IMG/VR virus record: IMGVR_UViG_3300016464_000385
Strand: one strand, 5' to 3'
Length of the DNA stretch: 26,674 nt
Origin: an uncultured virus (IMG/VR IMGVR_UViG_3300016464_000385)
Taxonomy: Duplodnaviria > Heunggongvirae > Uroviricota > Caudoviricetes
Below, piece after piece: positions 10,683-26,300 of this stretch. Position 1 is the stretch's first letter, and every line of letters starts with the position of its first letter. Position numbers and translations under genes: made by a program. The notes beneath the pieces were generated by a model. The model saw only the letters and a program-made list of their open reading frames with translations. It was not told where the DNA came from and did not search any database.

Positions 10683-10683
10683 T

Positions 10684-10781: not shown

Positions 10782-10787
10782 TTTAAT

Positions 10788-10862: not shown

Positions 10863-10870
10863 ATTTAAAT

Positions 10871-10958: not shown

Positions 10959-11009
10959 CTTGAGTTATTGTCGAGACTCGAACCTTATAAATAGAACAGA
11001 GGTAAAATT

Positions 11010-11687: not shown

Positions 11688-11772
11688 AAGAAAATATCAA
11701 CTGGTGTTGATACACGCTTGGAAAGCGCTGTGACTCGAAAGGGTTGGGGTTCGATTCCTCTTTCTTCTGACA
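11686..11772 (+). tRNA. tRNA-Ser(GGA), atypical
   Basis: AGAAGAA/TTCTTCT acceptor, loop TTGGAAA, long variable arm, TTCGATT; ends GACA. Confidence 0.7.
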
Positions 11773-11779
11773 ATTCAAA

Positions 11780-11868
11780 GGAAGATTAACTGCTCGGGGT
11801 AGCAGCGCTGTTTGCTAAACAGTTGGAACCTGAAAGGGTTTGGGAGTCGGGATCTCAATTTTCCGCCA
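11780..11868 (+). tRNA. tRNA-Ser(GCT)
   Basis: Loop TTGCTAA, long variable arm, non-canonical T-loop GTCGGGA, GCCA end. Confidence 0.82.
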
Positions 11869-11874
11869 ATATTT

Positions 11875-11948
11875 GCCTCTATAGTTTAACGGTAAAACAG
11901 TTGCCTTGTAAGCATCTGATCTCAGTTCGATTCTGGGTTGAGGCTCCA
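11875..11948 (+). tRNA. tRNA-Thr(TGT)
   Basis: Cloverleaf, loop CTTGTAA, CCA. Confidence 0.9.
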
Positions 11949-11954
11949 ATATTT

Positions 11955-12036
11955 GGTTCAGTGCCTGAGTGGTCTAAGGGGTCGGTCTGCAAAACCGATA
12001 ATTTAATCAGCAGTTCGAATCTGCTCTGAACCTCCA
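11955..12036 (+). tRNA. tRNA-Cys(GCA)
   Basis: Cloverleaf, loop CTGCAAA, U73, CCA; enlarged variable region. Confidence 0.9.
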
Positions 12037-12098
12037 AAATAAAATGCTTGACTTTTATAAAAGAATAAAGTAAAATAGTTACATAAGTTGAATTAAAT

Positions 12099-12126
12099 GG
12101 ACCTGTCGTCTACTTGGTTTAGGATA
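12099..12126 (+). pseudogene. Truncated 5' tRNA fragment (Glu/Asp-type D arm)
   Basis: GGACCTG-TC-GTCTACTTGGTTTAGGAT with no 3' half, immediately before an endonuclease gene. Confidence 0.55.
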
Positions 12127-12183
12127 AATTAAATCAATCTTAAAATTCGGATTCCACTAAATAATATTAAAGTGGAGGTTTAT

Positions 12184-12969
12184 ATGAAAATTTGTCCTAA
12201 ATGTGGAGCGCGACACAATAAAAATGGAATATTTTGTTCTAGGAGTTGCGCCAATTCTAGAGTATGGACTGAAGAGATAAATGAATCTAGAAGAAAAAAG
12301 TTAAAAGACAATCCAGAAGTTATACCTTGGAATAAAGGAAAACATATAAAAGAAAGAATAAAAAAGGTTTGTAAAGAATGCGGAAAAGAGTTTGAAATTC
12401 TTAAATCATATAACGATAAAAATAACCCTAAATATTGTTCAAGCGAATGTGTTTATAAAAATTCTGGAGGATATAGGGAAGGATCTGGAAGATCAAAATC
12501 TGGATATTATAAAGGAATATATTGCGGTTCAACATATGAACTTGCTTGGGTGATTTATCAAATTGATAATAACATAGAGTTCCAAAGGTTTACTGGTACG
12601 TTAGAATTTGATGGAAATAAGTATATCCCAGATTTTATTCAAAATGGTAAAATTATAGAAATAAAAGGATACGAAAAAGAAGAATCTGTCGAAAAGAAAA
12701 ATTTAATAGCAAAAGCGAACGGTTTTGAAGTTTTTGTTTTGAGAAAAGAAAATCTAGAAAAAGAATTTGCTTGGGTTGAATCGAAGTATAAAACTAAAGA
12801 GTTATATACTTTATATGATGAATATAAACCAAAATATGAATATGTTTGTGATTATTGTAATAGCGTATTTCGTAAAGAACGTAAAATAATCACTAAACAT
12901 AAATTTTGTAATAGATTTTGTGCTGGAAAAGGGCATAAAGGTAGAAAGAATAAAGTCCTCATAGATTAA
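12184..12969 (+). mobile_element. Putative homing endonuclease, PD-(D/E)XK core with Cys-rich zinc/TRASH-like repeats
   Basis: CPKC..FCSRSC, CKEC..YCSSEC, STYEL..YIPDF..IIEIKG; GGAGG RBS before ATG 12184. Confidence 0.78.
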
Positions 12970-13032
12970 TTGGTTTAAATCGACAGACTTTCAATCTGTA
13001 GACTCCGAGTTCGATCCTCGGTGGGGACACCA
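12955..13032 (+). tRNA. tRNA-Glu(TTC)
   Basis: Cloverleaf, loop CTTTCAA, CCA; overlaps the endonuclease stop. Confidence 0.9.
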
Positions 13033-13126
13033 ATTTTAAAAATACATTCGCCTACGACGGTAGGTATTGTTGTGGTCCAATATTCTAGACGTAGGGTTCG
13101 ATTCCCTAGAGTGTACTTCTGAAAAT
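13033..13126 (+). ncRNA. tRNA-like long-stem element (family B, copy 3), His-like
   Basis: TACATTC/GAGTGTA stem extended outward, D-like hairpin, TATTG-TTGTGGTC-CAATA hairpin, perfect T arm TAGGG-TTCGATT-CCCTA, no CCA. Confidence 0.6.
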
Positions 13127-13133
13127 AAGTTTT

Positions 13134-13227
13134 GGGTGTCTTGCAGATATGGTGTGTTCTGCTCCGGACTGTAAATCCGGTCCCTCGTTGGTAAACATTC
13201 GCGGTTCGACTCCGTGGACACCCACCA
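13134..13227 (+). tRNA. tRNA-Tyr(GTA)
   Basis: Loop CTGTAAA, long variable arm, CCA. Confidence 0.9.
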
Positions 13228-13233
13228 AACAAT

Positions 13234-13307
13234 CGCGGGATGGAGAAATAGTAACTCAAGAGTCTCATAAGCTCTAGGTCCAGGTGCAATTCCTGGTCCC
13301 GCTACCA
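13234..13307 (+). tRNA. tRNA-Met(CAT), initiator-like
   Basis: CGCGGGA start with C1 unpaired, loop CTCATAA, T-loop TGCAATT, CCA. Confidence 0.82.
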
Positions 13308-13310
13308 ATA

Positions 13311-13530
13311 TGCGTTGCAACTAATGTCGGTGCTCCAGTTCTCCCGACTTAAAATGACTGATGATTTGTAGAAACAAGTTGATAGAGGTTCGAAACTTTA
13401 TCAGAATGCGACTATGATAGGTAATAACTGGGCCAATTTTATCTTGCGCACATCGTATAATTCGGGTAGACTTTTAAATGAGAAAGTCGCGCAAGAAGTC
13501 TAACAGAAAACCGTGACAGTTAGACAACTA
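13311..13530 (+). ncRNA. Unidentified multi-hairpin structured RNA(s)
   Basis: GTCGG/CCGAC, CCAGTT/AACTGG, TGATAGAG/CTTTATCA, TCTTGCGC/GCGCAAGA, GACTTT/AAAGTC, GTCTAAC/GTTAGAC helices. Confidence 0.5.
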
Positions 13531-13535
13531 ATTTT

Positions 13536-13609
13536 GGGAGTATAATTCAATGGCAGAATATCTGGCTTTTAACCAGTCTACGAAGGTTCGATTCCTTCTA
13601 CTCCTACCA
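13536..13609 (+). tRNA. tRNA-Lys(TTT)
   Basis: Cloverleaf, loop CTTTTAA, CCA. Confidence 0.93.
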
Positions 13610-13615
13610 AGTTTT

Positions 13616-13672
13616 AGGATACATACAGCAATTTAAAAAACTTTTATGGGAAAAAGCAAAAAGTATCCTGTT
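13616..13672 (+). ncRNA. Y-RNA-like element (family A, copy 1)
   Basis: AGGATAC-ATACAGCAA...GTATCCT-GTT with a small CTTTT/AAAAG hairpin. Confidence 0.65.
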
Positions 13673-13687
13673 GATTAAGACCATATT

Positions 13688-13804
13688 AGGTTTGTTACAG
13701 CAATATTAATATTTTCTTTGCAACAGAAAAAGACTAGGTTCGAATCCTAGCATAGATTGGTCATCTATGTGGTGTAATGGATAGCACAAAAAAAGCAAAC
13801 CTGT
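13688..13804 (+). ncRNA. Y-RNA-like element (family A, copy 2) with permuted tRNA body
   Basis: AGGTTTG-TTACAGCAA; anticodon-like TTTTCT-TTGCAAC-AGAAAA; T arm; closed acceptor CATAGAT/ATCTATG; D arm; CAAACCT-GT. Confidence 0.75.
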
Positions 13805-13813
13805 ACTTATTTC

Positions 13814-13887
13814 GCCTCATTAATTCAAAGGTAGAATACCGAACTGATAATTCAGAAACAATGGATCGTTACCATTATGAGGCACCA
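13814..13887 (+). tRNA. tRNA-Ile(GAT)
   Basis: Loop CTGATAA, T-loop ATCGTTA, CCA. Confidence 0.85.
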
Positions 13888-13913
13888 ATTTGACACTAAT
13901 AATTAGGTATATT

Positions 13914-14231
13914 ATGTTAGAAAAACAAACTCTTTCTTATTATGATTGGGATGATATTCAACAGTTTTTATCTGAAAAAATGAATATTGATGATGCTAAT
14001 TTTAGAGATTATCCTAAAGAATATAAAGATTTTTGGTATGTTTGGTTAGATATTGTATATGAAGACGTTCGAAACGATTCTTATAAAACATATTGGTTTG
14101 ATATGATGTTAGATAAAAAAGATTCAATAATAGCTAATCGAGGTGAATGGGTTTCTATTTTATTTGATGCTTTAAATGAATTACAAAAAGAAGTAAATGA
14201 AGAATATATAGTAATACGATATTCTTGGTAA
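13914..14231 (+). CDS. Hypothetical acidic, Trp-rich protein
   Basis: AGGT RBS before ATG 13914; ends in YSW. Confidence 0.7.
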   Translation: MLEKQTLSYYDWDDIQQFLSEKMNIDDANFRDYPKEYKDFWYVWLDIVYEDVRNDSYKTYWFDMMLDKKDSIIANRGEWVSILFDALNELQKEVNEEYIVIRYSW

Positions 14232-14234
14232 TTA

Positions 14235-14308
14235 GGTTGTATAGTTAAGTGGTATAACTAGAGATTCATATCCTCTTATCACCGGTTCGATTCTGGTTAC
14301 AACCACCA
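14235..14308 (+). tRNA. tRNA-Met(CAT), probably elongator
   Basis: Cloverleaf, loop TTCATAT, CCA. Confidence 0.85.
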
Positions 14309-14316
14309 AAGTTTAA

Positions 14317-14391
14317 GGTTCTATAGTGTAGTGGTCTGCACGATGCTCTGTCACAGCATAAGTAGGGGATCGTTCCCCCTTAGAACCGCCA
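14317..14391 (+). tRNA. tRNA-Asp(GTC)
   Basis: Loop CTGTCAC, T-loop ATCGTTC, GCCA. Confidence 0.88.
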
Positions 14392-14452
14392 ATTTAGGTT
14401 TAGTGGTAAGGTTTGAAGTTTGAGTTTTTATAAATAGTATAGAGGTAATTTT

Positions 14453-15028
14453 ATGCTATTATGTAAATATTGTAATAAAGAATGCAAAAACGATAATTCT
14501 TTAAGAAATCATGAACGATTGTGTTCTAAAAACCCGAATAAACAAATCGCCAAAATAGAAAATTTAAATAATTATTTAGCTAAGAAAATGTGTAAATTTT
14601 GTTTGAATGATTATTCTCTTGGAAATTTAACCAAGCACGAGAAAAGTTGTAAACAAAACCCCTTAAATTTTAAAGAATGTCCTGTTTGTAAAAAAAATCA
14701 TACAAAGAAAAGCGTAACTTGTTCTTATAGTTGTTCTAATACTTTTTTCCGAAGCGGAAAAAATAATCCTAATTGGAAAGAACATAGTTATAGAACAACT
14801 TGTTTTGAATTTCATAAAAAACAATGTATTGTTTGCGGAGAAGAAAAAATAGTTACGGTTCATCACTTAAACGAAGATCATAGTGACAACAGGCCAGAAA
14901 ATTTAATACCTTTATGCCCTACTCATCATCAATATGTTCATAGTAGGTATAAAGAAGAAGTTCAATCTTATATTGATGATTATATAAAAACTTTTATTTC
15001 CGTTCGTGGGTCATTGGTTGACCACTAG
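14453..15028 (+). mobile_element. HNH homing endonuclease with N-terminal C2HC zinc-finger repeats
   Basis: CIVCG..VHHLNEDHSDNRPENLIPLCPTHHQYVH; TATAAATA upstream. Confidence 0.88.
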
Positions 15029-15074
15029 TTTTGGGAACTAGATTAAGGGAGTTCGAGTCCCTCTACACGGACCA
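15000..15074 (+). tRNA. tRNA-Pro(TGG), chimeric or mispaired
   Basis: Loop TTTGGGA; acceptor CCGTTCG/TACACGG and T stem GGGAG/CCCTC carry mismatches. Confidence 0.7.
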
Positions 15075-15081
15075 ATTTTAA

Positions 15082-15156
15082 TGGCAATTAGCACAGCGGT
15101 AGTGCATCGGACTGTTAATCCGTGGGTCGTAGGTTCGAATCCTACATTGCCAGCCA
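15082..15156 (+). tRNA. tRNA-Asn(GTT), second copy
   Basis: Cloverleaf, loop CTGTTAA, CCA. Confidence 0.95.
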
Positions 15157-15162
15157 ATTTAT

Positions 15163-15240
15163 GGGGAATGGGACTGCTTGGGGTGGTCGTAAGTTTTGCA
15201 AACTTATTTCAGATCGGTTCGAATCCGATATTCTCCACCA
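15163..15240 (+). tRNA. tRNA-Ala(TGC)
   Basis: G3:U70 pair, loop TTTGCAA, CCA. Confidence 0.9.
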
Positions 15241-15290
15241 ATTTATTTTTAATTATTCAGTTTGAAGGCAATTTTATATAAAAAATAAAT

Positions 15291-15364
15291 ATCTCAGTGG
15301 TGTAACGGTAACATGTCACGCTCCAAACGTGGTGTTGAGGGTTCAAATCCTTCCTGGGATGCCA
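15291..15364 (+). tRNA. tRNA-Trp(CCA)
   Basis: Cloverleaf, loop CTCCAAA, CCA. Confidence 0.92.
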
Positions 15365-15402
15365 ATTTAAAATTGGTGTAAAATTATAAAAAAAGTAATG
15401 TA

Positions 15403-15588
15403 ATGAATAAAGAAAAAATTCAAAAACGTTTAAATTTGATTAACAAATCGCTTAATATATTATCAGATTGTGCTCATATGGACCAATTTGTAACAGGTTC
15501 TAAAGAAAGAGATAATACATATATAAGAGCAATTCTTCTATTAAAAGAAAAAAGAGAAAAATTAAATAATATTATTTTAAGAGAATAA
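15403..15588 (+). CDS. Small hypothetical protein
   Basis: 61-aa ORF on the coding strand. Confidence 0.5.
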   Translation: MNKEKIQKRLNLINKSLNILSDCAHMDQFVTGSKERDNTYIRAILLLKEKREKLNNIILRE

Positions 15589-15611
15589 AAAATATGTAAC
15601 AAGAGGTAATT

Positions 15612-16082
15612 ATGCGTACTATTAATGTAGAAGAAGTAAAAGAATATATAGAATCATTGGGTCCAAACACTAAAATATATATCGGCGGAGACTCTGAACG
15701 CTTCAAATTAAACGGTCAATGGTACGCAGATTATACTCTAGTTATAGTAGTACATATTAACGGTAAACATGGTTGTAAAGTTTTTGGTGAAATCCATAGG
15801 GAAAGGGATTTTGATCAAAAGAAACAAAAACCAAGAATGCGTCTTATGACAGAAGTATATAAAATAGCAGAATTATATCTAAAATTAAAAGACGTTCTGG
15901 AAGATAGAGAAGTAGAAGTCCATTTAGATATTAACAAAGATGAAAAATTTGGAAGTTCTTGTGTAGTTAATGAAGCTATCGGATACATTCGTGGTATGTG
16001 TAACGTAACGCCATTCGTAAAACCCAACGCTTGGGCAGCTTCTACCTGCGCTGATAGACTAAAAAGTTTAAATGTTGCATAA
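15612..16082 (+). CDS. RNase H-like YkuK/DUF458 family protein
   Basis: IYIGGDS, RLMTEV, EVHLDIN, VKPNAWAASTCAD motifs. Confidence 0.85.
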   Translation: MRTINVEEVKEYIESLGPNTKIYIGGDSERFKLNGQWYADYTLVIVVHINGKHGCKVFGEIHRERDFDQKKQKPRMRLMTEVYKIAELYLKLKDVLEDREVEVHLDINKDEKFGSSCVVNEAIGYIRGMCNVTPFVKPNAWAASTCADRLKSLNVA

Positions 16083-16090
16083 AAAAATGA

Positions 16091-16118
16091 TTGACTTTTT
16101 GAAAAAGTTTAGTATAAT
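16091..16118 (+). promoter_or_regulatory. Sigma70-like promoter driving the family A array and the DUF2828 gene
   Basis: TTGACT-N16-TATAAT, 10 nt before the first element. Confidence 0.7.
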
Positions 16119-16128
16119 AGTTAAATAA

Positions 16129-16211
16129 AGGATGAATACAGTTTTAAATACTCAATCTCGGTCCTAAGATGCCTATATGGTTGACCGATTTAGTAAAAAT
16201 ACTATTCTGTT
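16129..16211 (+). ncRNA. Y-RNA-like element (family A, copy 3, divergent)
   Basis: AGGATG-AATACAG...TATTCT-GTT with internal TCGGTC/GACCGA helix. Confidence 0.55.
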
Positions 16212-16220
16212 AAGATTTTT

Positions 16221-16332
16221 AGAATCCTTACAGCATAATTATTGCATTGAAAGCCGTTTACATAGGTTCGATTCCTATTTTCCCCACATGGAAATAGCTT
16301 AGTGGTAAAGCAACGAAAAAGAGGATTCTGTT
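16221..16332 (+). ncRNA. Y-RNA-like element (family A, copy 4) with permuted tRNA body
   Basis: AGAATCCT-TACAGCA; T arm ATAGG-TTCGATT-CCTAT; TTTCC-CCACAT-GGAAA; D arm GCTT-AGTGGTA-AAGC; AGGATTCT-GTT. Confidence 0.78.
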
Positions 16333-16340
16333 AAGTTTTT

Positions 16341-16398
16341 AGGTTCGATTCAGCAAAATAACTTTCCGCCACATTTGGAAAAATAAAACGAACCTGTT
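16341..16398 (+). ncRNA. Y-RNA-like element (family A, copy 5)
   Basis: AGGTTCG-ATTCAGCAA; hairpin TTTCC-GCCACATTT-GGAAA; CGAACCT-GTT. Confidence 0.7.
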
Positions 16399-16407
16399 AA
16401 TGATTTT

Positions 16408-16525
16408 AGGGTACATACAGCCAAAATTTTTTGCAATTGTAATGCCGTGGTTGTTGGTTCGAGTCCAACTTTCTCTTAGGAGAAATAGCTCAATCGGTAG
16501 AGCACGTAAAAAACTGTATCCTGTT
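16408..16525 (+). ncRNA. Y-RNA-like element (family A, copy 6) with permuted tRNA body
   Basis: AGGGTACA-TACAGC; GCA-ATTGTAA-TGC; T arm GTTGG-TTCGAGT-CCAAC; TTTCTC-TTAG-GAGAAA; D arm GCTC-AATCGGTA-GAGC; TGTATCCT-GTT. Confidence 0.8.
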
Positions 16526-16533
16526 TAAATGTT

Positions 16534-16597
16534 AGGTTTATTTCCGCATATTAAAATAAACAAACTGAAACTTTGTCTAAAAAACATATAAACCTGT
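16534..16597 (+). ncRNA. Y-RNA-like element (family A, copy 7) with Phe anticodon stem-loop
   Basis: AGGTTTAT-TTCCGCA; ACAAA-CTGAAAC-TTTGT; ATAAACCT-GT; abuts the RBS of the DUF2828 gene. Confidence 0.68.
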
Positions 16598-16606
16598 GAG
16601 GTAATT

Positions 16607-18028
16607 ATGAACGCATTTGTAAACGCTGTTAAAAATCAAGAAGCTTTTACCGAAAATGGTATGAAGGCTCGTAAAAATACTGCAAACGCCGTTGTTGATC
16701 TATTTTATAAAGTTGGTGCTTCTCGCGGTAAGAATATTGTTCCTGACTTTACCGCTGCTTTTGTAGAAAATCCAGAACTAGCAATTCGAGTAGCTCTTTG
16801 GGCTCGCGACGTTCGTGGTGGGGCAGGTGAACGCGAAGTTTTTCGTCAAATTTTACTATATCTAGAAACCACTAATCCAAAATTAGTAGAAAAGATTCTC
16901 CCAAAAGTTCCTGAATTGGGTCGTTGGGATGACCTTCTAACTTTTAAGTCAGATTTCCGTTGGAAGGCATATGACTTTGTTAAGGATGCTATTTCTGCTA
17001 AGAATGGTTTATGCGCAAAATGGATGCCTCGTAAGGGCGAAGTTGCGGTAGAACTTCGTAATGCTCTAGGAATGTCGCCTAAACAATATCGTAAGACTTT
17101 AGTTAATTTAACTAAGGTTGTAGAAACTCAAATGTGCGCTAAAGATTGGAATAACATTAATTTCAGTCATGTTCCATCTGTGGCTTCTGCTAGATATAAG
17201 AAGGCTTTCTGGCGTAATGCTAAGGATACTTATGAATCTTATGTTGCTTCTCTTGTAAAAGGTGACAATCCAAAAGTTAAGGTTAATGCAGGAGCGGTTT
17301 ATCCATATGATGTACTGAAGGGTCTTTCAATTACATCAAGAAGTTATAACAAAACTCAACTTGATCTAATAGTCAAGCAATGGGAAGCTCTTCCTAATTA
17401 TGTTGGAGATGCTAGTATTCTACCTTTGGTTGATGTATCTGGTTCTATGATGTGTAAAGCGGGTGGAGCAGTTTCTAAAAGCGAAACTTCTTGTTTAGAT
17501 GTAGCTGTTTCTCTAGGTTTATATCTAGCAGAAAAGAATACTGGAGATTTTAAGGATACTTTCTTGACTTTTTCTAGTAATCCGGAATTATTACATCTAA
17601 AGGGTAATGTTGTGGATAAAATGAATCAGATGGTAACATCTGATTGGGGAATGTCTACTGATTTACATGCGGCTATGGATAAAATCTTACAAACTGCTGT
17701 AAATGGTAAAGTTTCTGGAGATGAAATGCCAAAAATACTATTGATCCTATCTGATATGCAGTTCAATCAATGCACTAGATTTAATGATTCTGCATATGAA
17801 ATGATCTCTCGTAAGTTTGAAAACGCAGGATATAATATGCCTAACATTGTTTTTTGGAATTTGAACGCGAAAGATAATGTTCCTGTTAAGTATGATACTA
17901 GCGGTGTATCATTAGTATCTGGATTCAGTCCATCTATAGTAAAAGCTATTCTATCTGCGGATACTAAAGACTTTACTCCAGAAGCAATTTGTCTAAAAAC
18001 GATTATGAATACACGTTACGACTTTTAA
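16607..18028 (+). CDS. DUF2828 helical domain plus C-terminal vWA protein (Ro60/TROVE-like architecture)
   Basis: TENG, RDVRGGAGER, GRWDDL, AKWMPR; MIDAS DVSGSM, ILSDMQF, IVFWNL, VSGFSP. Confidence 0.85.
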   Translation: MNAFVNAVKNQEAFTENGMKARKNTANAVVDLFYKVGASRGKNIVPDFTAAFVENPELAIRVALWARDVRGGAGEREVFRQILLYLETTNPKLVEKILPKVPELGRWDDLLTFKSDFRWKAYDFVKDAISAKNGLCAKWMPRKGEVAVELRNALGMSPKQYRKTLVNLTKVVETQMCAKDWNNINFSHVPSVASARYKKAFWRNAKDTYESYVASLVKGDNPKVKVNAGAVYPYDVLKGLSITSRSYNKTQLDLIVKQWEALPNYVGDASILPLVDVSGSMMCKAGGAVSKSETSCLDVAVSLGLYLAEKNTGDFKDTFLTFSSNPELLHLKGNVVDKMNQMVTSDWGMSTDLHAAMDKILQTAVNGKVSGDEMPKILLILSDMQFNQCTRFNDSAYEMISRKFENAGYNMPNIVFWNLNAKDNVPVKYDTSGVSLVSGFSPSIVKAILSADTKDFTPEAICLKTIMNTRYDF

Positions 18029-18032
18029 TTTA

Positions 18033-18057
18033 AGGAGAGTTTCGGCTCTCCATTTAA
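18033..18057 (+). terminator. Hairpin (weak terminator or processing site)
   Basis: GGAGAGT-TTCG-GCTCTCC followed by ATTT. Confidence 0.55.
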
Positions 18058-18071
18058 AATATTACTATATA

Positions 18072-18134
18072 AGGATACATTCAGCAAACCAAAAACACCA
18101 GACTCCTAATCTGAAACGTTAAACGTATCCTGTT
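18072..18134 (+). ncRNA. Y-RNA-like element (family A, copy 8) with Arg(CCT) anticodon stem-loop
   Basis: AGGATAC-ATTCAGCAA; CAGA-CTCCTAA-TCTG; GTATCCT-GTT. Confidence 0.72.
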
Positions 18135-18150
18135 AATTTTGAGGTAAATT

Positions 18151-18756
18151 ATGAAAGAAAATCTAACTGAAATTGTTGTAATTATTGATGCTTCTGGTTC
18201 TATGCATAATTTTTCTTCTGATACCATCGGAGGATTTAATGCTTTTATAGAGGAACAAAAGAAACTTCCTGGAGAAGCTAATATCACTTTAGCTACATTT
18301 AACGGCGTTGACCCTAATAATATTATATTTGATGGAGTAAATATACAAGATTGTCCTGGATTAAGTTCGGATAGTTATAAGCCAGATGGTATGACTCCGC
18401 TTTATGATGCTGTAGGAAATACTATTTCTGTAGTCGGAAAACGATTGGCTCAAATCCCGGAAGAAGAACGGCCATCTAAAGTTCTATTCTTGATTACTAC
18501 AGATGGTTTAGAAAATTGCAGTAAAGATTATACTAGAGAAAAAATTAAGAGTATGATTTATCATCAAAAGACTAAGTATAATTGGGAGTTTGTATTTACT
18601 GGGGCTAATATTGATTCTGCTTCTGTAGCTGATTCTATGAATATTTCATCTTCTGTAAATTACGATCAAAATAATACTTCTAATTTATATAGAGATGTAT
18701 TTAATACAGTTGCTTCTTCTTTCAGAGCAACTGGAAAATTAACTGTGAACGATTGA
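18151..18756 (+). CDS. Stand-alone vWA domain protein
   Basis: IIDASGSM MIDAS, GMTPLYDAVG, ITTDGLEN, WEFVFTGAN. Confidence 0.9.
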   Translation: MKENLTEIVVIIDASGSMHNFSSDTIGGFNAFIEEQKKLPGEANITLATFNGVDPNNIIFDGVNIQDCPGLSSDSYKPDGMTPLYDAVGNTISVVGKRLAQIPEEERPSKVLFLITTDGLENCSKDYTREKIKSMIYHQKTKYNWEFVFTGANIDSASVADSMNISSSVNYDQNNTSNLYRDVFNTVASSFRATGKLTVND

Positions 18757-18790
18757 ATAAATTACTAAATACTTTAATTTAAGGTAATAT

Positions 18791-19186
18791 ATGAAGTCGT
18801 ATAAAAATTTTATAGAAGAAAATATTAATGAACCTAAATTTGGCGATAGCCAATCTTTAAGAGCAGTCAAAAACGCTCGAAAAATAATTGATAAAATGAA
18901 ACAAGAATATAAAGATGGTAAGATTGATTTACCCACTCTTCAACATTCAACTAAACATATAACGCACGCGATTAATTTTGCAGATCAATTTAAAGATGAT
19001 CCTCAATGGAACGATTTAATGCGTAATCATATTGATGGTACAAAATATGTTATAGATAGAACGTTGGAGAGAGGATCTAAATCTTTAAATGTTGATATGG
19101 CAAAACATGCTAAAAAACATTTAACTGATTTACTATATTCCATCGAAGATTATTTTGTCCATGATCAATCTCATCAATATAGATAG
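18791..19186 (+). CDS. Putative internal head protein
   Basis: N-terminus MKSYKNFIEE resembles the T4 capsid-targeting sequence; ACTAAATA late-like promoter upstream. Confidence 0.55.
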   Translation: MKSYKNFIEENINEPKFGDSQSLRAVKNARKIIDKMKQEYKDGKIDLPTLQHSTKHITHAINFADQFKDDPQWNDLMRNHIDGTKYVIDRTLERGSKSLNVDMAKHAKKHLTDLLYSIEDYFVHDQSHQYR

Positions 19187-19234
19187 AATAAAAAGCTTTA
19201 CTTTTTTCTGATATATAGTATAATATATTAAATC

Positions 19235-19269
19235 GCGGGTATCGTATAATGGTTATTACCTCTGCCTTC
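19235..19269 (+). pseudogene. 5' half of tRNA-Gly broken within the anticodon
   Basis: GCGGGTA-TC-GTATAATGGTTATTAC-C-TCTGC-CTTC then unrelated AT-rich sequence. Confidence 0.75.
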
Positions 19270-19300
19270 ACATTTATATAAATACAAATAAGAGGACTAT

Positions 19301-19804
19301 ATGTTTTATTACTTGTATCAAATAAGAAATAATGTGAATGGAAAAATATATATTGGGGTCCATAAAACCAATGACTTAAATGATGGATATATGGGTTCCG
19401 GTAAACGCTTACATGATGCATATAAGCACCACGGAATAGAAAATTTTACCAAAACTATTTTGGAGGAATTTAATAATTCTGATGAGATGTATGCTAGAGA
19501 AAAACAAATAGTCACCGAAGAGTTTTTAAATAGAAACGATACCTATAACCTTCGAAGAGGCGGGACCGGAGGATTTGATTTTATCAATAATTCTGGGATT
19601 CAAAAATTCAAAGGAAAATCGCATTCTGTTGAATCCAGGTCATTAATGGGCCATCCGGGGAATAACCACGCCGTTGGAAATACTGGTGGCAAAAAGAACA
19701 AAGGGAAAAAGAGAGAGCGTATAGAATGCCCACATTGCCACAAAATATGTGGGGTAAATATGATAGTAAGACATCATTTAGATAAGTGTAAAATGCGGGT
19801 ATAA
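19301..19804 (+). mobile_element. GIY-YIG (Seg-like) homing endonuclease
   Basis: YLYQIRNNVNGKIYIGVHKT...YMGSG; C-terminal CPHC..HHLDKC; TATAAATA at 19277-19284. Confidence 0.9.
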
Positions 19805-19869
19805 CTCAGCGGTAGAGTGTCAGCCTTCCAAGCTGTTCGTCGTCGGTTCGATTCCGATTACCCGCTCCA
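19795..19869 (+). tRNA. tRNA-Gly(TCC)
   Basis: Cloverleaf, loop CTTCCAA, U73, CCA. Confidence 0.93.
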
Positions 19870-19880
19870 ATTTTAATTTA

Positions 19881-19965
19881 GGGGATATGGTGAAATTGGT
19901 AAACATAGCAGACTTAAAATCTGCCGCCGAAAGGCTTGTCGGTTCGATTCCGACTATCCCCACCA
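19881..19965 (+). tRNA. tRNA-Leu(TAA)
   Basis: Loop CTTAAAA, variable arm, CCA. Confidence 0.95.
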
Positions 19966-19976
19966 AGTTTTAAACT

Positions 19977-20053
19977 GGGCCTCTAGCTCAATTGGTTAGA
20001 GCATCCGACTCATAATCGGCAGGTTTACGGTTCAAGTCCGTAGTGGCCCACCA
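19977..20053 (+). tRNA. tRNA-Ile2(CAT), lysidine type
   Basis: GGGCCTC start and GACTCATAATC arm as in ileX-type tRNAs. Confidence 0.85.
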
Positions 20054-20088
20054 AACAACGACTATTTGAGTTTAATTGATGATTAAAT

Positions 20089-20165
20089 GCGGCTGTAGCT
20101 CAGTGGATTAGAGCAACGAGCTTCTACCTCGTTAGTCGGGGGTTCGAGTCCCTCCAGCCGCGCCA
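20089..20165 (+). tRNA. tRNA-Arg(TCT)
   Basis: Cloverleaf, loop CTTCTAC, CCA. Confidence 0.95.
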
Positions 20166-21305: not shown

Positions 21306-21923
21306 ATGAAAGTGAATATCGGCCCTTATAAAAATTGGATTGGTCCTTATCAAATAGCTCAATCTTTTTCGTTTTTGCCCATTTTAGAAAGAGATAGAGA
21401 AGCTTTTGGAGATTGGTTATCAAAAACTTGGGTTGACAAATTTTGTAATTGGGTTTATAATAAGTCTAATAGAAAAATTAAAGTTAAACTAGATTATTGG
21501 GATCATTGGAACGCAGATGAGACTATGGCGATTGTAATTCTTCCTCTATTAAAAGCCCTTAAAATACATAAACATGGCGCTGGAATGGTTGATGATGAAG
21601 ATGTTCCGGAGGAATTAAGATCTATTTCTGCTCCGGTCAAAGAAAATGAATGGGATATTGACGATAACCATTTTAAAAGATATGATTGGATGTTAAATGA
21701 AGTAATCTGGGCTTTTGAGCAATTACAACCAGGTAATGATTGGGAAGATCAATATTATACAACTATTGATTCTAAAGAAAAAAGAACAGATATGGATGAT
21801 TTATTGGATTTACCTAAAGGAAAATTTATAGATTATGATAGAGATGGATATATGGAACATTCTAAGCGTATAGATCGCGCATTAGTAATGTTTGGAAAAT
21901 ATTACAGAAGTTTTTGGGATTAA
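21306..21923 (+). CDS. Conserved hypothetical phage protein
   Basis: 205-aa ORF with GGAG RBS; Trp/Asp-rich, ends FGKYYRSFWD. Confidence 0.75.
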   Translation: MKVNIGPYKNWIGPYQIAQSFSFLPILERDREAFGDWLSKTWVDKFCNWVYNKSNRKIKVKLDYWDHWNADETMAIVILPLLKALKIHKHGAGMVDDEDVPEELRSISAPVKENEWDIDDNHFKRYDWMLNEVIWAFEQLQPGNDWEDQYYTTIDSKEKRTDMDDLLDLPKGKFIDYDRDGYMEHSKRIDRALVMFGKYYRSFWD

Positions 21924-21927
21924 AAGC

Positions 21928-21958
21928 TTTACTTTTATACAAAAATATAGTATAAATA
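21928..21958 (+). promoter_or_regulatory. Overlapping sigma70-like and T4 late promoters for pmoC
   Basis: TTTACT-N17-TATAAA, where the -10 box is also TATAAATA. Confidence 0.65.
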
Positions 21959-22035
21959 GTATTGTTGAATGAATTGAAGGGATTCAATTTACTGAAATGG
22001 ACTTTATTTTTATGTTAAACTAAGAGGTATATAAG

Positions 22036-22815
22036 ATGGCTAGTGTTGTAAAATCAGCTGCAGTAACTGCAGAAGCGCCAGTTCTAAATAAGTCCTGGCT
22101 AACGTTTGCTTTCATGGTTTACACCGTATTCTATATTTGGGTACGTTGGTATGAAGGCGTTTTTGGTTGGAGCGCGGGTCTTGATTCTTTTGCTCCAGAG
22201 TTTGAAACCTATTGGATGAACTTCCTATACACTGAAATTGTATTAGAAGTAACTACGGCTTCTATTCTTTGGGGTTATATTTGGAAATCAAGGGATCGTA
22301 ACCTTGCTGCAATCACTCCAAGAGAAGAACTTCGTCGTAATATGACTCACCTAATTTGGCTATTTGCTTATGCGAATGCTATTTACTGGGGAGCCTCTTA
22401 TTTCACGGAACAAGACGGAACTTGGCATCAAACTATTGTTCGTGATACTGACTTTACTCCAAGTCATATCATTGAATTCTACTTGACTTACCCAATCTAC
22501 ATCATTACTGGATTTGCTGCATTCCTATATGCTAAGACCAGACTTCCTTACTTTGCTGAAGGTCTAAGTCTTCCATATCTAGTAACTGTTGTAGGGCCAT
22601 TTATGATTCTACCAAACGTAGGTCTAAATGAATGGGGTCACACCTTCTGGTTCATGGAGGAACTATTTGTTGCCCCTTTGCACTATGGGTTCGTGTTCTT
22701 TGGTTGGCTTGCTTTGGCTATTGCTGGTGTATTGCTACAGGTATTCTCATCTTTTGCTGGTCTGATTGGAGATCAAATTGTTGAGTCTGTAGACAAAGGC
22801 TTAGTAGCTAAGTAA
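22036..22815 (+). CDS. pmoC: Particulate methane monooxygenase subunit C
   Basis: GWSAGLDSFAPEFETYWMN, EQDGTWHQTIVRDTDFTPSHIIEFY, PNVGLNEWGHTFWFMEELFVAPLHYGFV. Confidence 0.97.
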   Translation: MASVVKSAAVTAEAPVLNKSWLTFAFMVYTVFYIWVRWYEGVFGWSAGLDSFAPEFETYWMNFLYTEIVLEVTTASILWGYIWKSRDRNLAAITPREELRRNMTHLIWLFAYANAIYWGASYFTEQDGTWHQTIVRDTDFTPSHIIEFYLTYPIYIITGFAAFLYAKTRLPYFAEGLSLPYLVTVVGPFMILPNVGLNEWGHTFWFMEELFVAPLHYGFVFFGWLALAIAGVLLQVFSSFAGLIGDQIVESVDKGLVAK

Positions 22816-22836
22816 ACAGTTACGTCAATAGTAACG

Positions 22837-22861
22837 AAAGGGGACTTCGGTCCCCTTTTTT
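22837..22861 (+). terminator. Intrinsic terminator after pmoC
   Basis: AAAGGGGAC-TTCG-GTCCCCTTT plus T-run. Confidence 0.9.
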
Positions 22862-22866
22862 ATTGC

Positions 22867-22924
22867 TTGACTTTTATAGAAATTTAAGTATACTATATAC
22901 AAGTAAGAAGGATAGACCTTCTTA
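22867..22924 (+). promoter_or_regulatory. Sigma70-like promoter plus leader palindrome of the NAD operon
   Basis: TTGACT-N16-TATACT; TAAGAAGG-ATAGA-CCTTCTTA at 22904-22924. Confidence 0.6.
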
Positions 22925-22952
22925 TATCAATAAAAACATAGGAGTTATGTTT

Positions 22953-23978
22953 ATGAAGAAAAAATATGATATCGCCGTCTTTATTGGACGATTCCAACCT
23001 CTCCATAATGCTCATCTTGAAATTATTAAAAAAGCCTCAGAAATATCTGATAAAGTTATTTTGATTATTGGATCGGCTTTTCAACCCAGAACTTATAAAA
23101 ATCCTTTTACTGAACACGATAGGCTAGTAATGCTTAAAGTGATTTGTGATGAACACAAAATAAAAAATGTAATAATTGATTATACTACTGACTCTATCTA
23201 TAATGATCAGGCTTGGGCAATTCGAATTCAAAGAATTGTTGATGGATATTCTAATAATAAAATTAATAAAATTGCTATTTTTGGTCATGACAAAGATGAT
23301 TCTACTTTTTATCTAAGTATGTTTCCTCAATGGCAAAGAGAACATATTGATCTAATTGAACCTTTACATTCTACTGATATTAGAGATCTTTATTTCCGCA
23401 ACGATGTTAATATGAATTTTATTAAGGGAGTAGTTCCTAGTTATACCTTCAAATTTCTGGAAGATTTCAAAAATAGAAGTGAATATTTACAAATTATAAA
23501 AGAAAGGGAGTTTATCGAATCATATAAAAAACAATATGAATGTTTACCTTATCCACCAGTATTCGTAACAACCGATACAGTTGTAATTCAATCGGGTCAT
23601 GTTCTTATGGTAAAACGTAGAGCAGAACCAGGAAAAGGTCTTTGGGCATTACCTGGAGGGTTTCTGGATGTTAATAATGATAAGAGTATGGTTTCGTGTG
23701 CAATTAGAGAACTAAAAGAAGAAACTGGAATTAAAGTTCCTGTTCCTGTATTGATTGGTAGTATTAAAGAGAATAAAGTATTCGATGCTATTAATAGATC
23801 AGCAAGGGGAAGAACTATTACTCATGCGTTTTATATTCAATTACCTGATGGAGAACTACCTAAAGTAAAAGGTCAAGATGACGCAGAAAAGGCGTCTTGG
23901 ATTCATATTGCTCATTTGGATTCTAGTGAAGTGTTTGAAGATCATTATGAAATCATTCAGACTTTTGTAGGAGCATGA
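22953..23978 (+). CDS. nadM: Bifunctional NMN adenylyltransferase / Nudix ADP-ribose pyrophosphatase
   Basis: FIGRFQPLHNAH; Nudix box GGFLD..AIRELKEETG; AGGAG RBS before ATG 22953. Confidence 0.95.
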   Translation: MKKKYDIAVFIGRFQPLHNAHLEIIKKASEISDKVILIIGSAFQPRTYKNPFTEHDRLVMLKVICDEHKIKNVIIDYTTDSIYNDQAWAIRIQRIVDGYSNNKINKIAIFGHDKDDSTFYLSMFPQWQREHIDLIEPLHSTDIRDLYFRNDVNMNFIKGVVPSYTFKFLEDFKNRSEYLQIIKEREFIESYKKQYECLPYPPVFVTTDTVVIQSGHVLMVKRRAEPGKGLWALPGGFLDVNNDKSMVSCAIRELKEETGIKVPVPVLIGSIKENKVFDAINRSARGRTITHAFYIQLPDGELPKVKGQDDAEKASWIHIAHLDSSEVFEDHYEIIQTFVGA

Positions 23979-25333
23979 TTATGAAAAATAATATAATTCT
24001 AAATTCAGATTCGTACAAATATAGTATGTTTAATCAGTATCCAAAAGGTACTGAAATAGTATATTCATATATCGAAAGTCGAGGCGGTAAGTGGGATTCT
24101 ACTCTATTCTTTGGTCTACAAGCATTTATTAAAGAATATTTACTAGAACCAATTACAAAAGATGATATTGACGTCGCTGAAAGTATAATTACAGCGCATG
24201 GAGAACCTTTTTATAAAGAAGGTTGGGAATATATCTTAAAAGAACATAATGGATTGCTTCCGGTAGTTATTAAAGCAGTTCCTGAAGGAACTATAGTTCC
24301 TGTCAAGAATGTATTAGTTACGATAGAAAATACAGACCCTAAATGTTTTTGGTTGACTACATTTCTTGAAACTGCATTGCTTCGTGCTGTTTGGTATCCT
24401 ACTACAGTAGCAACTAATAGTTATGAAAGTAAAAAGATTATTTTAAAATGGTTAAGAAAAAATGGCACTCCTACTGATATTGATTTTCGCTTGCATGATT
24501 TCGGTTCTAGAGGCGTTTCTAGTCTTGAAAGTTCTGCAATTGGTGGAGCAGCGCACCTCGTTAACTTTATGGGGACTGATAACGTTGCTGGTCTTTGTTT
24601 TACACGTTCTTATTACAATGGTGGGATTACAGGCTTTAGTGTTCCAGCAATGGAACATTCAACTGTAACTAGTTGGGGTCGTGAAAATGAAGTAGAAGCA
24701 TATCGTAATATGATTAGAAATAATCCAAATGGTATTATTTCGATTGTAAGTGATAGTTATGATATATATAAAGCATGTCATATGTATGGAACAGTGCTAA
24801 AACAAGACATTATTGACAACAATATTCAATTAGTAGTTCGTCCAGATAGCGGTATTCCTAATGTAGTAGTATCTTCTTGTTTAGATGTTTTAGATTGCTT
24901 TTTTGGTCATATTATTAATGATAAAGGATATAAGGTTATTAATAACGTTAAAGTCCTGCAAGGAGATGGAATTAATGGTAAAACTATTGACTTAATCTTA
25001 GAAACTGCAGATTCATATGGTTATAGTGCAGATAATATTCTATTCGGTCAAGGTGGAGCATTACTTCAACAAGTAGATAGAGATACTCAAAAATTCGCAA
25101 TGAAATGCTCTGCTATTAGAGTAAATGGTGAATGGAGACATGTATTTAAAGATCCTGTTACAGATCCTGGTAAATCTTCTAAAAAAGGTAGAGTAACTCT
25201 ATATAAAGAACATGGTAGGTATTATTCTGGCGTTGAAGATTGGCCTACTCCTGTATTAGAAACCGTATTTGAGAACGGTAAAATCGTTAAAGAATATACA
25301 TTCGAAGAAGTTCGTAAGAACTCTAGGAGTTAA
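23975..25333 (+). CDS. nadV: Nicotinamide phosphoribosyltransferase (NAMPT)
   Basis: DSYKYS, LHDFGSRG, PAMEHST, VVRPDSG, QGDGI, KDPVTDPGKSSKKG. Confidence 0.96.
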   Translation: MIMKNNIILNSDSYKYSMFNQYPKGTEIVYSYIESRGGKWDSTLFFGLQAFIKEYLLEPITKDDIDVAESIITAHGEPFYKEGWEYILKEHNGLLPVVIKAVPEGTIVPVKNVLVTIENTDPKCFWLTTFLETALLRAVWYPTTVATNSYESKKIILKWLRKNGTPTDIDFRLHDFGSRGVSSLESSAIGGAAHLVNFMGTDNVAGLCFTRSYYNGGITGFSVPAMEHSTVTSWGRENEVEAYRNMIRNNPNGIISIVSDSYDIYKACHMYGTVLKQDIIDNNIQLVVRPDSGIPNVVVSSCLDVLDCFFGHIINDKGYKVINNVKVLQGDGINGKTIDLILETADSYGYSADNILFGQGGALLQQVDRDTQKFAMKCSAIRVNGEWRHVFKDPVTDPGKSSKKGRVTLYKEHGRYYSGVEDWPTPVLETVFENGKIVKEYTFEEVRKNSRS

Positions 25334-25362
25334 ATAAATAATTTTATTTGAGGAGTGATAAA

Positions 25363-25434
25363 ATGTGGACTAAACCAACATTCAAAGATATCAGATTAGG
25401 GTTTGAAGTTACTTGTTATATTCTAGTAAAATAA
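25363..25434 (+). CDS. pqqA: PQQ precursor peptide PqqA (not in ORF track)
   Basis: [23 protein letters not shown], 23 aa, with the W-x-K-P and R-L-G-F-E-x-x-x-Y signature; GAGGAG RBS. Confidence 0.92.
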
Positions 25435-25437
25435 AAT

Positions 25438-25460
25438 AAGGGGACCGAAGTCCCCTTTTT
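25438..25460 (+). terminator. Intrinsic, probably bidirectional, terminator
   Basis: AAGGGGAC-CGAA-GTCCCCTT plus T-run. Confidence 0.85.
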
Positions 25461-25461
25461 A

Positions 25462-26232
25462 TTAAGTTGTTATTCCAATCTGAATATTTCCTGACCAAAC
25501 TGCCTGATATATTTCCTCGTTCATACCTTCTCCAAACATAGCACGATACTTTTTGGTATGTTTAGATTCTTTGGTTTTAGCAGTAGCATCTCCCGGAGCT
25601 GGTTCATATGCTCTTGAATCGCTATCTGACATCTTATTAGCTTTTTCCCAATGAGCTGCTCTGGCTTTTGCTGTACTAGGAGATAACCCAGCAACATATT
25701 TCTTAGGTAAACCAGACTCTTTATCTTTTGCTACTCTAGGTAACTTACTAGTATCTCCTTCATGAAGATCTTTATCTGCTCCATGATATGTCCCTTTTCC
25801 TTTAGTAATATAAGAGTTCACTCTAGCCATTCCCCATTGTTGAGGCGTTGTTCCTGGACGATGACCAGAATTCCAAGCAGCAACTCCTCGACGATAAACT
25901 TTACGCAAAGTTCCTATAGAAATACCAGACTTCTTTGCTTTATTTGCTAAACCAGTATCTGCCGCTTCACAAATATCAATCTGGTAATCTTCTTTCATTT
26001 CTGTAGTAAGATAATCGCTGATAGTCTGTAAATAATCTTTAGCAATAGCAATCTTAGATTGACACCACTCTGGCATATTACTATTATCTTCTAACATCCC
26101 AGCAATACGTTGAGCATGCATCATAATAATATGCATATCGTTCTTTGCCATCTCTCCTTCGAAATCATATTCTCTTGGATTGTTTTCTTCCTTTTCTGAA
26201 ATGCTACCGTTAAATTCTTTAAAAGTTTTCAT
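25462..26232 (-). CDS. Putative internal head protein with conserved T4-like modules
   Basis: MKTFKEFNGSISE N-terminus; MPEWCQSKIA and VYRRGVAAW..QQWGMARVNS modules; TATAAATA upstream on the minus strand. Confidence 0.65.
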   Translation of the reverse strand: MKTFKEFNGSISEKEENNPREYDFEGEMAKNDMHIIMMHAQRIAGMLEDNSNMPEWCQSKIAIAKDYLQTISDYLTTEMKEDYQIDICEAADTGLANKAKKSGISIGTLRKVYRRGVAAWNSGHRPGTTPQQWGMARVNSYITKGKGTYHGADKDLHEGDTSKLPRVAKDKESGLPKKYVAGLSPSTAKARAAHWEKANKMSDSDSRAYEPAPGDATAKTKESKHTKKYRAMFGEGMNEEIYQAVWSGNIQIGITT

Positions 26233-26300
26233 GTCTTATCGCCTTCGTTTGAATTGATACTTTTATATTTATAAATACATATTTTCCATCAGGAACTCAA

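Follow-up and report, generated by a model that had tools for sequence, protein, structure and literature searches.

A stand-alone phage copy of pqqA near pmoC in a cyanomyovirus-like phage of a likely methanotroph host

Organization of the locus

The window, by which we mean the whole 26,674-nucleotide stretch analysed here, is phage DNA with a G+C content of 32.8%. Its genes include those for gp32, the gp59 helicase loader, the gp33 late-transcription co-activator, PhoH, an exonuclease and several homing endonucleases, together with 20 tRNA genes at 9.9–20.2 kb, 18 of which were confirmed with Rfam. The gp32 protein is closest to those of cyanomyovirus-type T4-like phages (53–57% identity), and the window comes from a cyanomyovirus-like phage of the T4 type. 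No close cultured relative was found when the window was compared by blastn with 50,697 phage records; 12 records gave partial matches to nadM/nadV only, none of which reached 80% of the query, and the published pmoC-phages were not among these 12.

As shown in Table 1, the genes pmoC, nadM, nadV and pqqA follow one another in this order on the + strand and are met by a convergent DUF5824 gene on the − strand. The reading frame of nadM-Nudix is open from a TTG codon, but its true start is probably ATG 22947 or 22953; the homologue in the related record L002 starts near there. The slot between nadV and a DUF3307 gene differs among close relatives, and it is pqqA and the DUF5824 gene that fill it here. 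The hairpins that follow pmoC and pqqA are related, the 20-nt core of the former being the reverse complement of the latter. We take TATAAATA, present upstream of pmoC, to be the T4 late-promoter consensus; the window contains 14 copies where 6.4 are expected, and none of 100 shuffles reached 14. Promoters of the sigma-70 type showed no clear excess (26 in the window, 22.8 expected).

Table 1. Features at the pmoC–pqqA end of the window
Feature	Position	Strand	Details
Candidate late promoter TATAAATA	21951..21958	+	78 nt before pmoC ATG
pmoC	22036..22815	+	Stand-alone, full length, 259 aa; AmoC family 3.1e-122
Terminator hairpin 3' of pmoC	22836..22859	+	−18.4 kcal/mol, z −4.5
nadM-Nudix (NMN adenylyltransferase + NUDIX)	22863..23978	+	Open from TTG 22863
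nadV (nicotinamide phosphoribosyltransferase)	23975..25333	+	NAPRTase 3.2e-52, NAMPT_N 2.5e-27; phrog_448 4.7e-157
Candidate T4/cyanomyovirus-type late promoter AATAAATA	25333..25340	+	22 nt before pqqA ATG; hint only
Shine-Dalgarno-like GAGGAG	25350..25355	+	ATG 7 nt further on
pqqA	25363..25434	+	23 codons + TAA; ATG 25363–25365, stop 25432–25434
Two-way terminator AAGGGGAC-CGAA-GUCCCCUU + T-run	25438..25462	Both	Common to pqqA (+) and convergent DUF5824 gene (−)
DUF5824 gene	25462..26232	−	Convergent with pqqA

Identity of the pqqA gene

A sequence-only reading of this DNA had described a 23-codon ORF with a strong ribosome-binding site and a terminator at the end of the nadM-nadV unit, and had named it pqqA. 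The ORF is present and its translation is exactly the peptide that had been noted; GAGGAG provides the ribosome-binding site, and the gene begins 29 nt past the stop codon of nadV, which is itself preceded by nadM-Nudix. The terminator is likewise borne out. The hairpin at 25438–25457, which is followed by TTTTTATT, was called terminator-like on both strands in a terminator scan, and it folds at −12.9 kcal/mol (z −3.6), with none of 200 shuffles as stable.

The proposed family membership was examined with two curated models, both of which the peptide passed at about twice their cut-offs. The Pfam PqqA model PF08042 gave 39.4 bits against a cut-off of 21.1 (E 5.5e-10) and was matched at all 19 of its positions, and the NCBIfam equivalog model TIGR02107 gave 40.5 bits against a cut-off of 20. 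The E-x-x-x-Y motif that had been claimed is found as E15-V-T-C-Y19. A longer reading of 28 amino acids, started from a TTG codon at 25348, scores slightly below the 23-residue form, and the homologues start at the ATG.

The genes pqqB-pqqC-pqqD-pqqE, which typically stand behind pqqA, are absent from this position, and pqqB-E were not found in the window. This missing context does not exclude membership of the family, since stand-alone copies of pqqA are known in bacteria (PMC9851590). Judged by its sequence, the ORF is a true pqqA gene, carried by a phage and standing alone, and its identity is secure.

We also considered a chance ORF or an artefact of assembly, for which one could point to the mere 23 codons of the gene and to the many ORFs of 20–30 codons in such AT-rich DNA. 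We rejected this explanation, and its probability is negligible: the peptide passes two curated family models with E values of about 1e-10, homologues were found at 80 further viral loci, and the same arrangement is present in a contig of another study. This DNA contig (X3) covers positions 21,900–25,500 unbroken; it shows 47 differences, and the single indel listed lies at 22,856, outside pqqA. As X3 runs from pmoC to pqqA, the gene order is no accident of assembly. In all, 20 listed sequencing runs contain the stretch or part of it. Seven of them hold at least half of the sampled words, and these belong to freshwater, estuary, aquatic and aquaculture metagenomes from five studies. One of the runs may be that from which the stretch itself was assembled.

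The neighbouring pmoC and the likely host

The AmoC-family gene that had been read as a nearby pmoC is intact and of the methanotroph type. Its 259-residue product matches PmoC of Methylococcus capsulatus in the solved pMMO structure (PDB entry 7ev9_C) over the full length with an E value of 3e-147 and about 85% identity, whereas ammonia-monooxygenase (AmoC) chains match far more weakly, in the range of 1e-70. We take the metal ligands of PmoC to be D156/H160/H173 and N227/H231/H245 (1yew numbering); in the printed alignment all six residues are kept in the window protein, as D127/H131/H144 and N198/H202/H216.

The best cellular PmoC loci lie in Methylococcaceae genome bins (84–92%), and the named genera that come next are Candidatus Methylumidiphilus, Methylotetracoccus and Methylocaldum at 80–81%. 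Because the best cellular loci are those of Methylococcaceae, the host is likely, on the likeness of PmoC, to be a type Ib gammaproteobacterial (Methylococcaceae) methanotroph. Within the 26.7-kb window pmoC is flanked by genes that are not of pMMO and lies on the same DNA as the phage hallmarks, as in a pmoC-phage. The orphan pqqA, in turn, combines viral hallmarks with a C1-oxidising host type, as in a viral auxiliary gene. We note that the very best cellular PmoC loci come from short binned contigs that may be of phage origin themselves.

Comparison with PqqA of methanotrophs

A search with PF08042 found PqqA in 24 of the 26 methanotroph genomes that were reached via PmoC loci. These host peptides are nearly uniform, following M-[KRQT]-W-[ES]-[TK]-P-[ST]-[YF]-x-D-[LM]-R-F-G-F-E-V-T-M-Y-I-[YC]-N-R, and their scores of 38.6–43.2 bits bracket the 39.4 bits of the window peptide. 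An ORF of about 300 amino acids stands directly after the host gene and is followed by a further ORF; from their position and length, and from the usual layout of the operon, we take these two to be pqqB and pqqC. The window copy differs from bacterial pqqA in being an orphan on a phage, without pqqBCDE behind it.

The window peptide and those of the Methylococcales are alike in length (23 and 24 residues), in the frame W-x-x-P...D-x-R-x-G-F-E-V-T-x-Y-I and in the placing of Glu and Tyr four apart. Identity to seven aligned host peptides is 52–65%. In an alignment of seven phage and seven methanotroph peptides the invariant columns are M1, W2, P5, D9, R11, G13, F14, E15, V16, Y19 and I20, all of which are kept in the window peptide; W2, P5, D9, R11 and G13 belong to the conserved N-terminal part, by which PqqD holds the peptide (PMC10906245). 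The differences lie at Ile10, Leu12, Cys18 and the tail ILVK, which depart from the Methylococcales type D[LM]RFGFEVTMYIYNR and where the host peptides have Leu/Met, Phe, Met and IYNR, respectively. A degenerate core pattern matched in 137 of 151 sampled Methylococcales genomes, and none of the 150 matches listed from these 151 genomes, when read by eye, encodes Ile10 or Cys18. Four of the 150 are second copies of the type D-L-R-L-G-F-E-V-T-L-Y. One of the 137 matching genomes (G147) is flagged as unpublished and bears on no claim made here.

A divergent peptide of this kind could conceivably act as a decoy, occupying the host PqqD/PqqE, yielding no PQQ and so shutting down host synthesis, and it would suit such a role that positions 10, 12 and 18 and the tail of the phage type are unlike those of all the host peptides listed. 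We consider it very improbable, however. A blocker would not need Glu15 and Tyr19, and yet these residues and their spacing are invariant in all 81 viral copies. Furthermore, pqqA travels with genes that support rather than block methane oxidation, and the PqqA of huge phages is close to the host form, matching the commonest host peptide at 22 of 24 residues in a hand count.

Distribution of pqqA among phages

The pairing of pqqA with pmoC was followed across PmoC-bearing phage records, for which the best 80 of 121 IMG/VR stretches were taken, and it recurs in eight of these. An earlier strict peptide pattern had found pqqA at only four of the 80 PmoC loci; a whole-record HMM search raised the count to 8/80 over the cut-off, made up of 8/50 and 0/30, the latter being the 30 records in which PmoC is about 60% identical. 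Four of the carriers are T4-like fragments with a PmoC that is 85–91% identical to that of the window. In three of them (L007, L008 and L014) pqqA starts 73–82 nt after pmoC with a hairpin between the two genes, and in the fourth (L013) it lies about 2 kb away. The other four carriers are large phages of 172, 188, 259 and 372 kb in which pqqA is far from pmoC; the 372-kb genome is complete, with terminal repeats. A ninth record (G250) carries pqqA together with a truncated AmoC-family gene at the end of the record.

The gene is not a constant companion of pmoC. It is absent from the six records with the most similar PmoC (G001–G006, 91–95% identity), one of which is 76% complete, and among the five PmoC-bearing records that are at least 90% complete it is present in one. 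In L002 three unrelated small ORFs follow nadV, after which synteny resumes at the DUF3307 gene. Since G001–G006 lack pqqA and the slot in L002 is filled by other ORFs, pqqA and the DUF5824 gene are, going by gene content, variable cargo in this phage lineage.

To gauge how widely the gene is spread, the pattern D[IL]R[FL]GFEV was run against 2.9 million IMG/VR contigs, giving 137 stretches; confirmation reduced these to 111, and 80 were kept. The figure of 111 viral copies is a lower bound, as the pattern misses the E-M-R-F type of the OM43 phages. The 80 kept copies correspond to 50 distinct peptides of 23–36 residues; in one record (L202) the stop codon of pqqA has been lost and the frame reads on to 42 amino acids. 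Neither PqqB nor PqqC was found within 6 kb of pqqA at any of the 80 kept loci, and PmoC was found within that distance at five. The enrichment of pqqA in PmoC-bearing records is very large, at 8/80 against about 111 in 2.9 million contigs, both counts being lower bounds and both genes tracking the type of host. In the records with the most similar pqqA, PmoC was present in 0/5 and 1/5, an absence that means little because these records are only 4–30% complete.

The five records with both pmoC and pqqA that were searched for the remainder of the pathway, including the complete 372-kb genome, contain no PqqC and no PQQ-dependent alcohol dehydrogenase. PqqE was not found over its cut-off in these five records, where the sole match was a generic one of 26 bits against a cut-off of 381 bits.

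A tblastn search with the peptide found 12 phage records, nine of which are phages of Methylophilales/Methylophilaceae. The cultured phages Melnitz-1, Venkman, MEP402 and P19250A each contain a pqqA ORF of 23–24 codons that is unannotated, and in Melnitz-1 a hypothetical protein is annotated over it on the opposite strand. All 13 of the peptides tested, namely those of the four cultured phages and nine hand-picked from the 80 IMG/VR copies, passed PF08042.

It could be argued from this distribution that the peptide is a real PQQ precursor put to another use, whether for other quinoproteins or for PQQ in a redox or protective role, and that its link to pmoC reflects nothing more than a shared host. 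Some matches to pqqA do come from records named Acinetobacter phage, many viral contigs with the gene have no PmoC nearby, and no result ties the peptide specifically to methanol dehydrogenase. Against this, pqqA directly adjoins pmoC in three records; nine of the 12 tblastn records are phages of methylotrophs, the four that were fetched all pass PF08042, and the central enzyme of those hosts is PQQ-dependent (PMC7678222). We regard this explanation as rather improbable.

Sequence constraint and upstream signals

Over 55 distinct DNA versions of viral pqqA we obtained a pN of 0.22 and a pS of 0.71, a ratio of 0.30 (uncorrected), and viral pqqA is, on this measure of its sequences, under purifying selection. 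Positions 9–16 were set by the search pattern, and their invariance is therefore partly circular, although they are written with two to eight different codons (4–5 at R, G and V). All 81 copies keep the residues W2, P5 and Y19, which lie outside the pattern; proline is encoded by up to four codons and tyrosine by two, while tryptophan has one codon only.

These results bear on the possibility that pqqA is passenger cargo, that is, a functional-looking gene acquired in a hypervariable region without measurable benefit to this phage. The variation of the nadV–DUF3307 slot between close relatives, the lack of pqqA in the records with the most similar PmoC and the lost stop codon in L202 are all in keeping with such a history. 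The constancy of the functional residues and the pN/pS ratio over the 55 versions argue against it, as do the gene's own ribosome site and terminator. Moreover, pqqA recurs in at least two very different types of phage (the T4-like fragments and the genomes of 172–372 kb) as well as in cultured methylotroph phages, and the phage peptides form a sequence type of their own, unlike fresh host copies. We think passenger status unlikely.

Of 54 distinct regions upstream of viral pqqA, 47 have a core at −18 to −4 that resembles a ribosome-binding site. For the late promoter we take NATAAATA as the consensus. ATAAATA occurs 22–37 nt upstream in seven of the 54 regions, including that of the window as part of AATAAATA, and three more copies abut the ATG, giving 10/54. 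Over 1000 shuffles the count averaged 2.0 and never exceeded 8, and 1.8% of 60-nt tiles contain the motif as background. Because the carriers share ancestry, the count makes them look more independent than they are. The motif is a hint, from sequence, that pqqA may be transcribed late in some lineages.

Metatranscriptome coverage was one of the checks that had been suggested. One RNA library (X16) yielded near-identical short contigs on pmoC, on nadM, at 25355–25395 and at 25425–25500, thus reaching both the start of pqqA and its terminator. The contig at 25355–25395 covers the first 33 nt of the gene, and its 116 letters upstream are unlike the window, with AATAAATA appearing again among the 30 upstream letters that were printed. 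We take these contigs as a weak hint of transcription of the pqqA region, since they are contigs rather than reads and DNA may be carried over into RNA libraries. In two further RNA libraries (X18 and X20) coverage is confined to conserved stretches of pmoC, mostly at 90–95% likeness and at very high depth, which fits transcripts of host pmoC and not of this phage; nadV and pqqA are uncovered in both, an absence that proves nothing.

Proposed role of the phage peptide

PqqE cross-links the Glu and Tyr of PqqA with the assistance of the chaperone PqqD, which grips the N-terminal part of the peptide while PqqE holds the Glu/Tyr end (PMC10906245). PMC9851590 calls PqqA a 'necessary precursor', describes the other Pqq proteins as ones that 'might be reusable elements' and reports that methylotrophs carry extra stand-alone copies of pqqA that are highly expressed.

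In our view, the best explanation of the window gene is that the phage supplies a PQQ precursor peptide which is processed by the host PqqB–E and sustains the host methanol dehydrogenase. We give this reading a probability of about 0.7; expression of the gene, acceptance of the peptide by the host and benefit to the phage are the parts of it that we infer. As no PQQ-making enzymes were found in the window, those of the host would have to process the peptide: it would be bound by the host PqqD and cross-linked by the host PqqE at E15/Y19, and the host PqqB, PqqC and a protease would finish PQQ. One PqqA peptide would be spent for each molecule of PQQ. Using its own ribosome site and perhaps a late promoter, the phage gene would thus furnish only what the pathway consumes; the phage would bring pqqA alone much as it brings only pmoC of pMMO, with the rest coming from the host. 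After a takeover of the T4 type the short pqqA message of the host would presumably no longer be renewed, and for that reason the phage copy would keep PQQ synthesis going. PQQ would then stay available for methanol dehydrogenase, the step after pMMO, as host expression fails, while pmoC may support the preceding step and nadM and nadV the NAD salvage/redox supply.

Several observations weigh against this reading of a host-processed precursor. The absence of pqqA from the nearest relatives by PmoC and the other ORFs in the L002 slot suggest that the gene is dispensable, and the phage peptide type was not seen in the order to which the host is assigned. Methanol dehydrogenase itself is not supplied in the phage records that were checked. 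PQQ is a reusable and tightly held cofactor, and a need for its new synthesis during a single infection is therefore not obvious.

More tentatively, and with a probability that we would put somewhat below even, the results may be drawn together as follows. The genes pmoC and pqqA may form an old two-gene cassette of cyanomyovirus-like methanotroph phages that is split here by NAD-salvage genes; pqqA may be one of the most frequent auxiliary genes in viruses of methane and methanol oxidisers, and one that mostly goes unannotated; and the phage-specific peptide type may be tuned for the host PqqD/PqqE after shut-off. If the cassette reading is true, these phages assist methane oxidation at two successive steps and provide in each case only what is consumed.

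Relation to known systems

The sequence-only reading knew of no report of pqqA in pmoC-phages, which puts the novelty too high. Viral PqqA was published in 2020 for methylotroph viruses of Lake Baikal (population VP_266; Coutinho et al., 2020), where pqqA was suggested to act as an auxiliary gene, increasing the PQQ available for the oxidation of methanol (PMC7678222). Both systems have a phage-borne pqqA. The Baikal viruses differ in that they are assigned to Methylophilaceae methylotrophs as hosts, carry a methanol dehydrogenase and have no pmoC. The window has a methanotroph as its likely host and pmoC as the partner gene, and no dehydrogenase turned up among the five pmoC+pqqA records.

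PqqA also appears in Supplementary Table S7 of the pmoC-phage paper (Chen et al., 2020; PMC7674155), as singleton PF08042 families of 43 and 36 residues in LM_6 and TP6_1, which are gamma-type pmoC-phages with Methyloparacoccus as their predicted host. The main text of PMC7674155 contains none of the terms pqq, pyrroloquinoline, methanol dehydrogenase or xoxF. Our phage resembles those of PMC7674155 in being a large phage with a stand-alone gammaproteobacterial-type pmoC, a G+C content of about 33% and many tRNAs; the difference is that the pairing, the adjacency and the peptide were left uninterpreted there. Discussion of pqqA in pmoC-phages was not found in full-text searches of the literature, and preprint supplements may hold further annotations. 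In the Melnitz paper PQQ appears only as a medium additive, at 1 nM (PMC9004378), a plastisphere virome paper has pqq and pmoC as unrelated mentions only (PMC12397222), and an amoC-phage preprint (10.64898/2026.06.18.733297) has no pqq term.

Bacterial parallels are the extra pqqA copies of strain FJNU-6, which has five, and of Methylovorus sp. MP688. According to PMC9851590, these too are orphans away from pqqBCDE that add precursor, and some are highly expressed; they are chromosomal and under the control of the host, whereas the window copy is viral. In logic only, the present case also resembles that of the cyanophages. Their psbA gene encodes the D1 protein of photosystem II, so that the phage carries only the part that is consumed fast, and the benefit has been shown experimentally. 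Likewise, pmoC alone and pqqA alone would be consumed parts that come from the phage, with the rest coming from the host; protein and pathway are unrelated, and the benefit is experimental for psbA only.

The novelty of the present results is thus modest, viral pqqA being already known. We add to this that pqqA repeatedly adjoins pmoC, that unannotated viral copies are widespread and that cultured systems exist for testing. Most gene callers overlook a gene this short, which is why it is missing from annotations and why viral contributions to C1 metabolism are undercounted. Much of the methane in lakes is consumed by aerobic methanotrophs and so does not escape. If phages keep both the methane step (through pmoC) and the methanol step (through PQQ) running, infection would alter the fluxes of methane and methanol and not simply stop them. 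The four cultured methylotroph phages that carry the gene (Melnitz, Venkman, MEP402 and P19250A, which are phages of OM43 and LD28) make the hypothesis directly testable.

pqqA in other phages and in methanotroph genomes

Each of the four cultured methylotroph phages that we checked carries an unannotated pqqA of 23–24 codons, and all four products passed the Pfam PqqA model (PF08042) at 37–43 bits. Their positions are listed in the table below. In Melnitz-1 an annotated hypothetical protein on the opposite strand overlaps the gene.

A variant copy lies 75 nt behind pmoC in one IMG/VR locus (L202:5995-6120; L008 contains the same gene), in which the stop at the usual place is absent and the reading frame extends to 42 aa. 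In L002, the closest syntenic relative of the window, the slot of pqqA and the DUF5824 gene is occupied by a segment (L002:13986-14874) with three plus-strand ORFs of 138, 78 and 74 aa, none having a family assignment; additional ORFs are found between nadM and nadV.

Among the matches listed, four Methylococcales genomes (G132, G137, G164 and G167) contain, in addition to the usual D-[LM]-R-F...T-M-Y gene, another pqqA whose product has the motif D-L-R-L-G-F-E-V-T-L-Y and is nearer to the phage type at positions 12 and 18.

Surroundings of pqqA in the window

The 20-nt hairpins located 3' of pmoC (22837-22858) and 3' of pqqA (25438-25457) are reverse complements of each other, and nadM-nadV-pqqA is thereby bracketed by an inverted repeat. 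The UUCG loop is on the plus strand in the former and on the minus strand in the latter.

The window contains 14 copies of TATAAATA against 6.4 expected, one of them at 21951-21958. These sites are frequently found immediately 5' of ORFs, with divergent pairs at 5003-5014 and 26266-26277. Their interpretation as candidate T4-type late promoters fits these observations, and gp33 is also encoded in the window.

The tRNA array

Twenty tRNA genes, 18 of which were confirmed by Rfam, form an array at 9905-20165, interspersed with homing-endonuclease ORFs of the GIY-YIG and HNH types. A gene for a DUF2828/DUF7788 protein is placed between tRNA blocks.

Coordinates of pqqA genes in cultured phages and of selected genes in the window
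Feature	Location	Remark
pqqA, Methylophilales phage Melnitz-1	L275:2495-2566	
pqqA, Methylophilales phage Venkman	L276:2501-2569	
pqqA, Methylophilales phage MEP402	L277:621-689	
pqqA, Methylophilaceae phage P19250A	L278:2501-2569	
gp33 gene	window 2394-2618	
GIY-YIG homing-endonuclease ORF	window 11010-11687	inside tRNA array
HNH homing-endonuclease ORF	window 12172-12969	inside tRNA array
HNH homing-endonuclease ORF	window 14453-15028	inside tRNA array
DUF2828 + DUF7788 protein, 473 aa	window 16607-18028	phrog_850 ('RNA-binding protein'), 4.7e-145
GIY-YIG homing-endonuclease ORF	window 19301-19804	inside tRNA array
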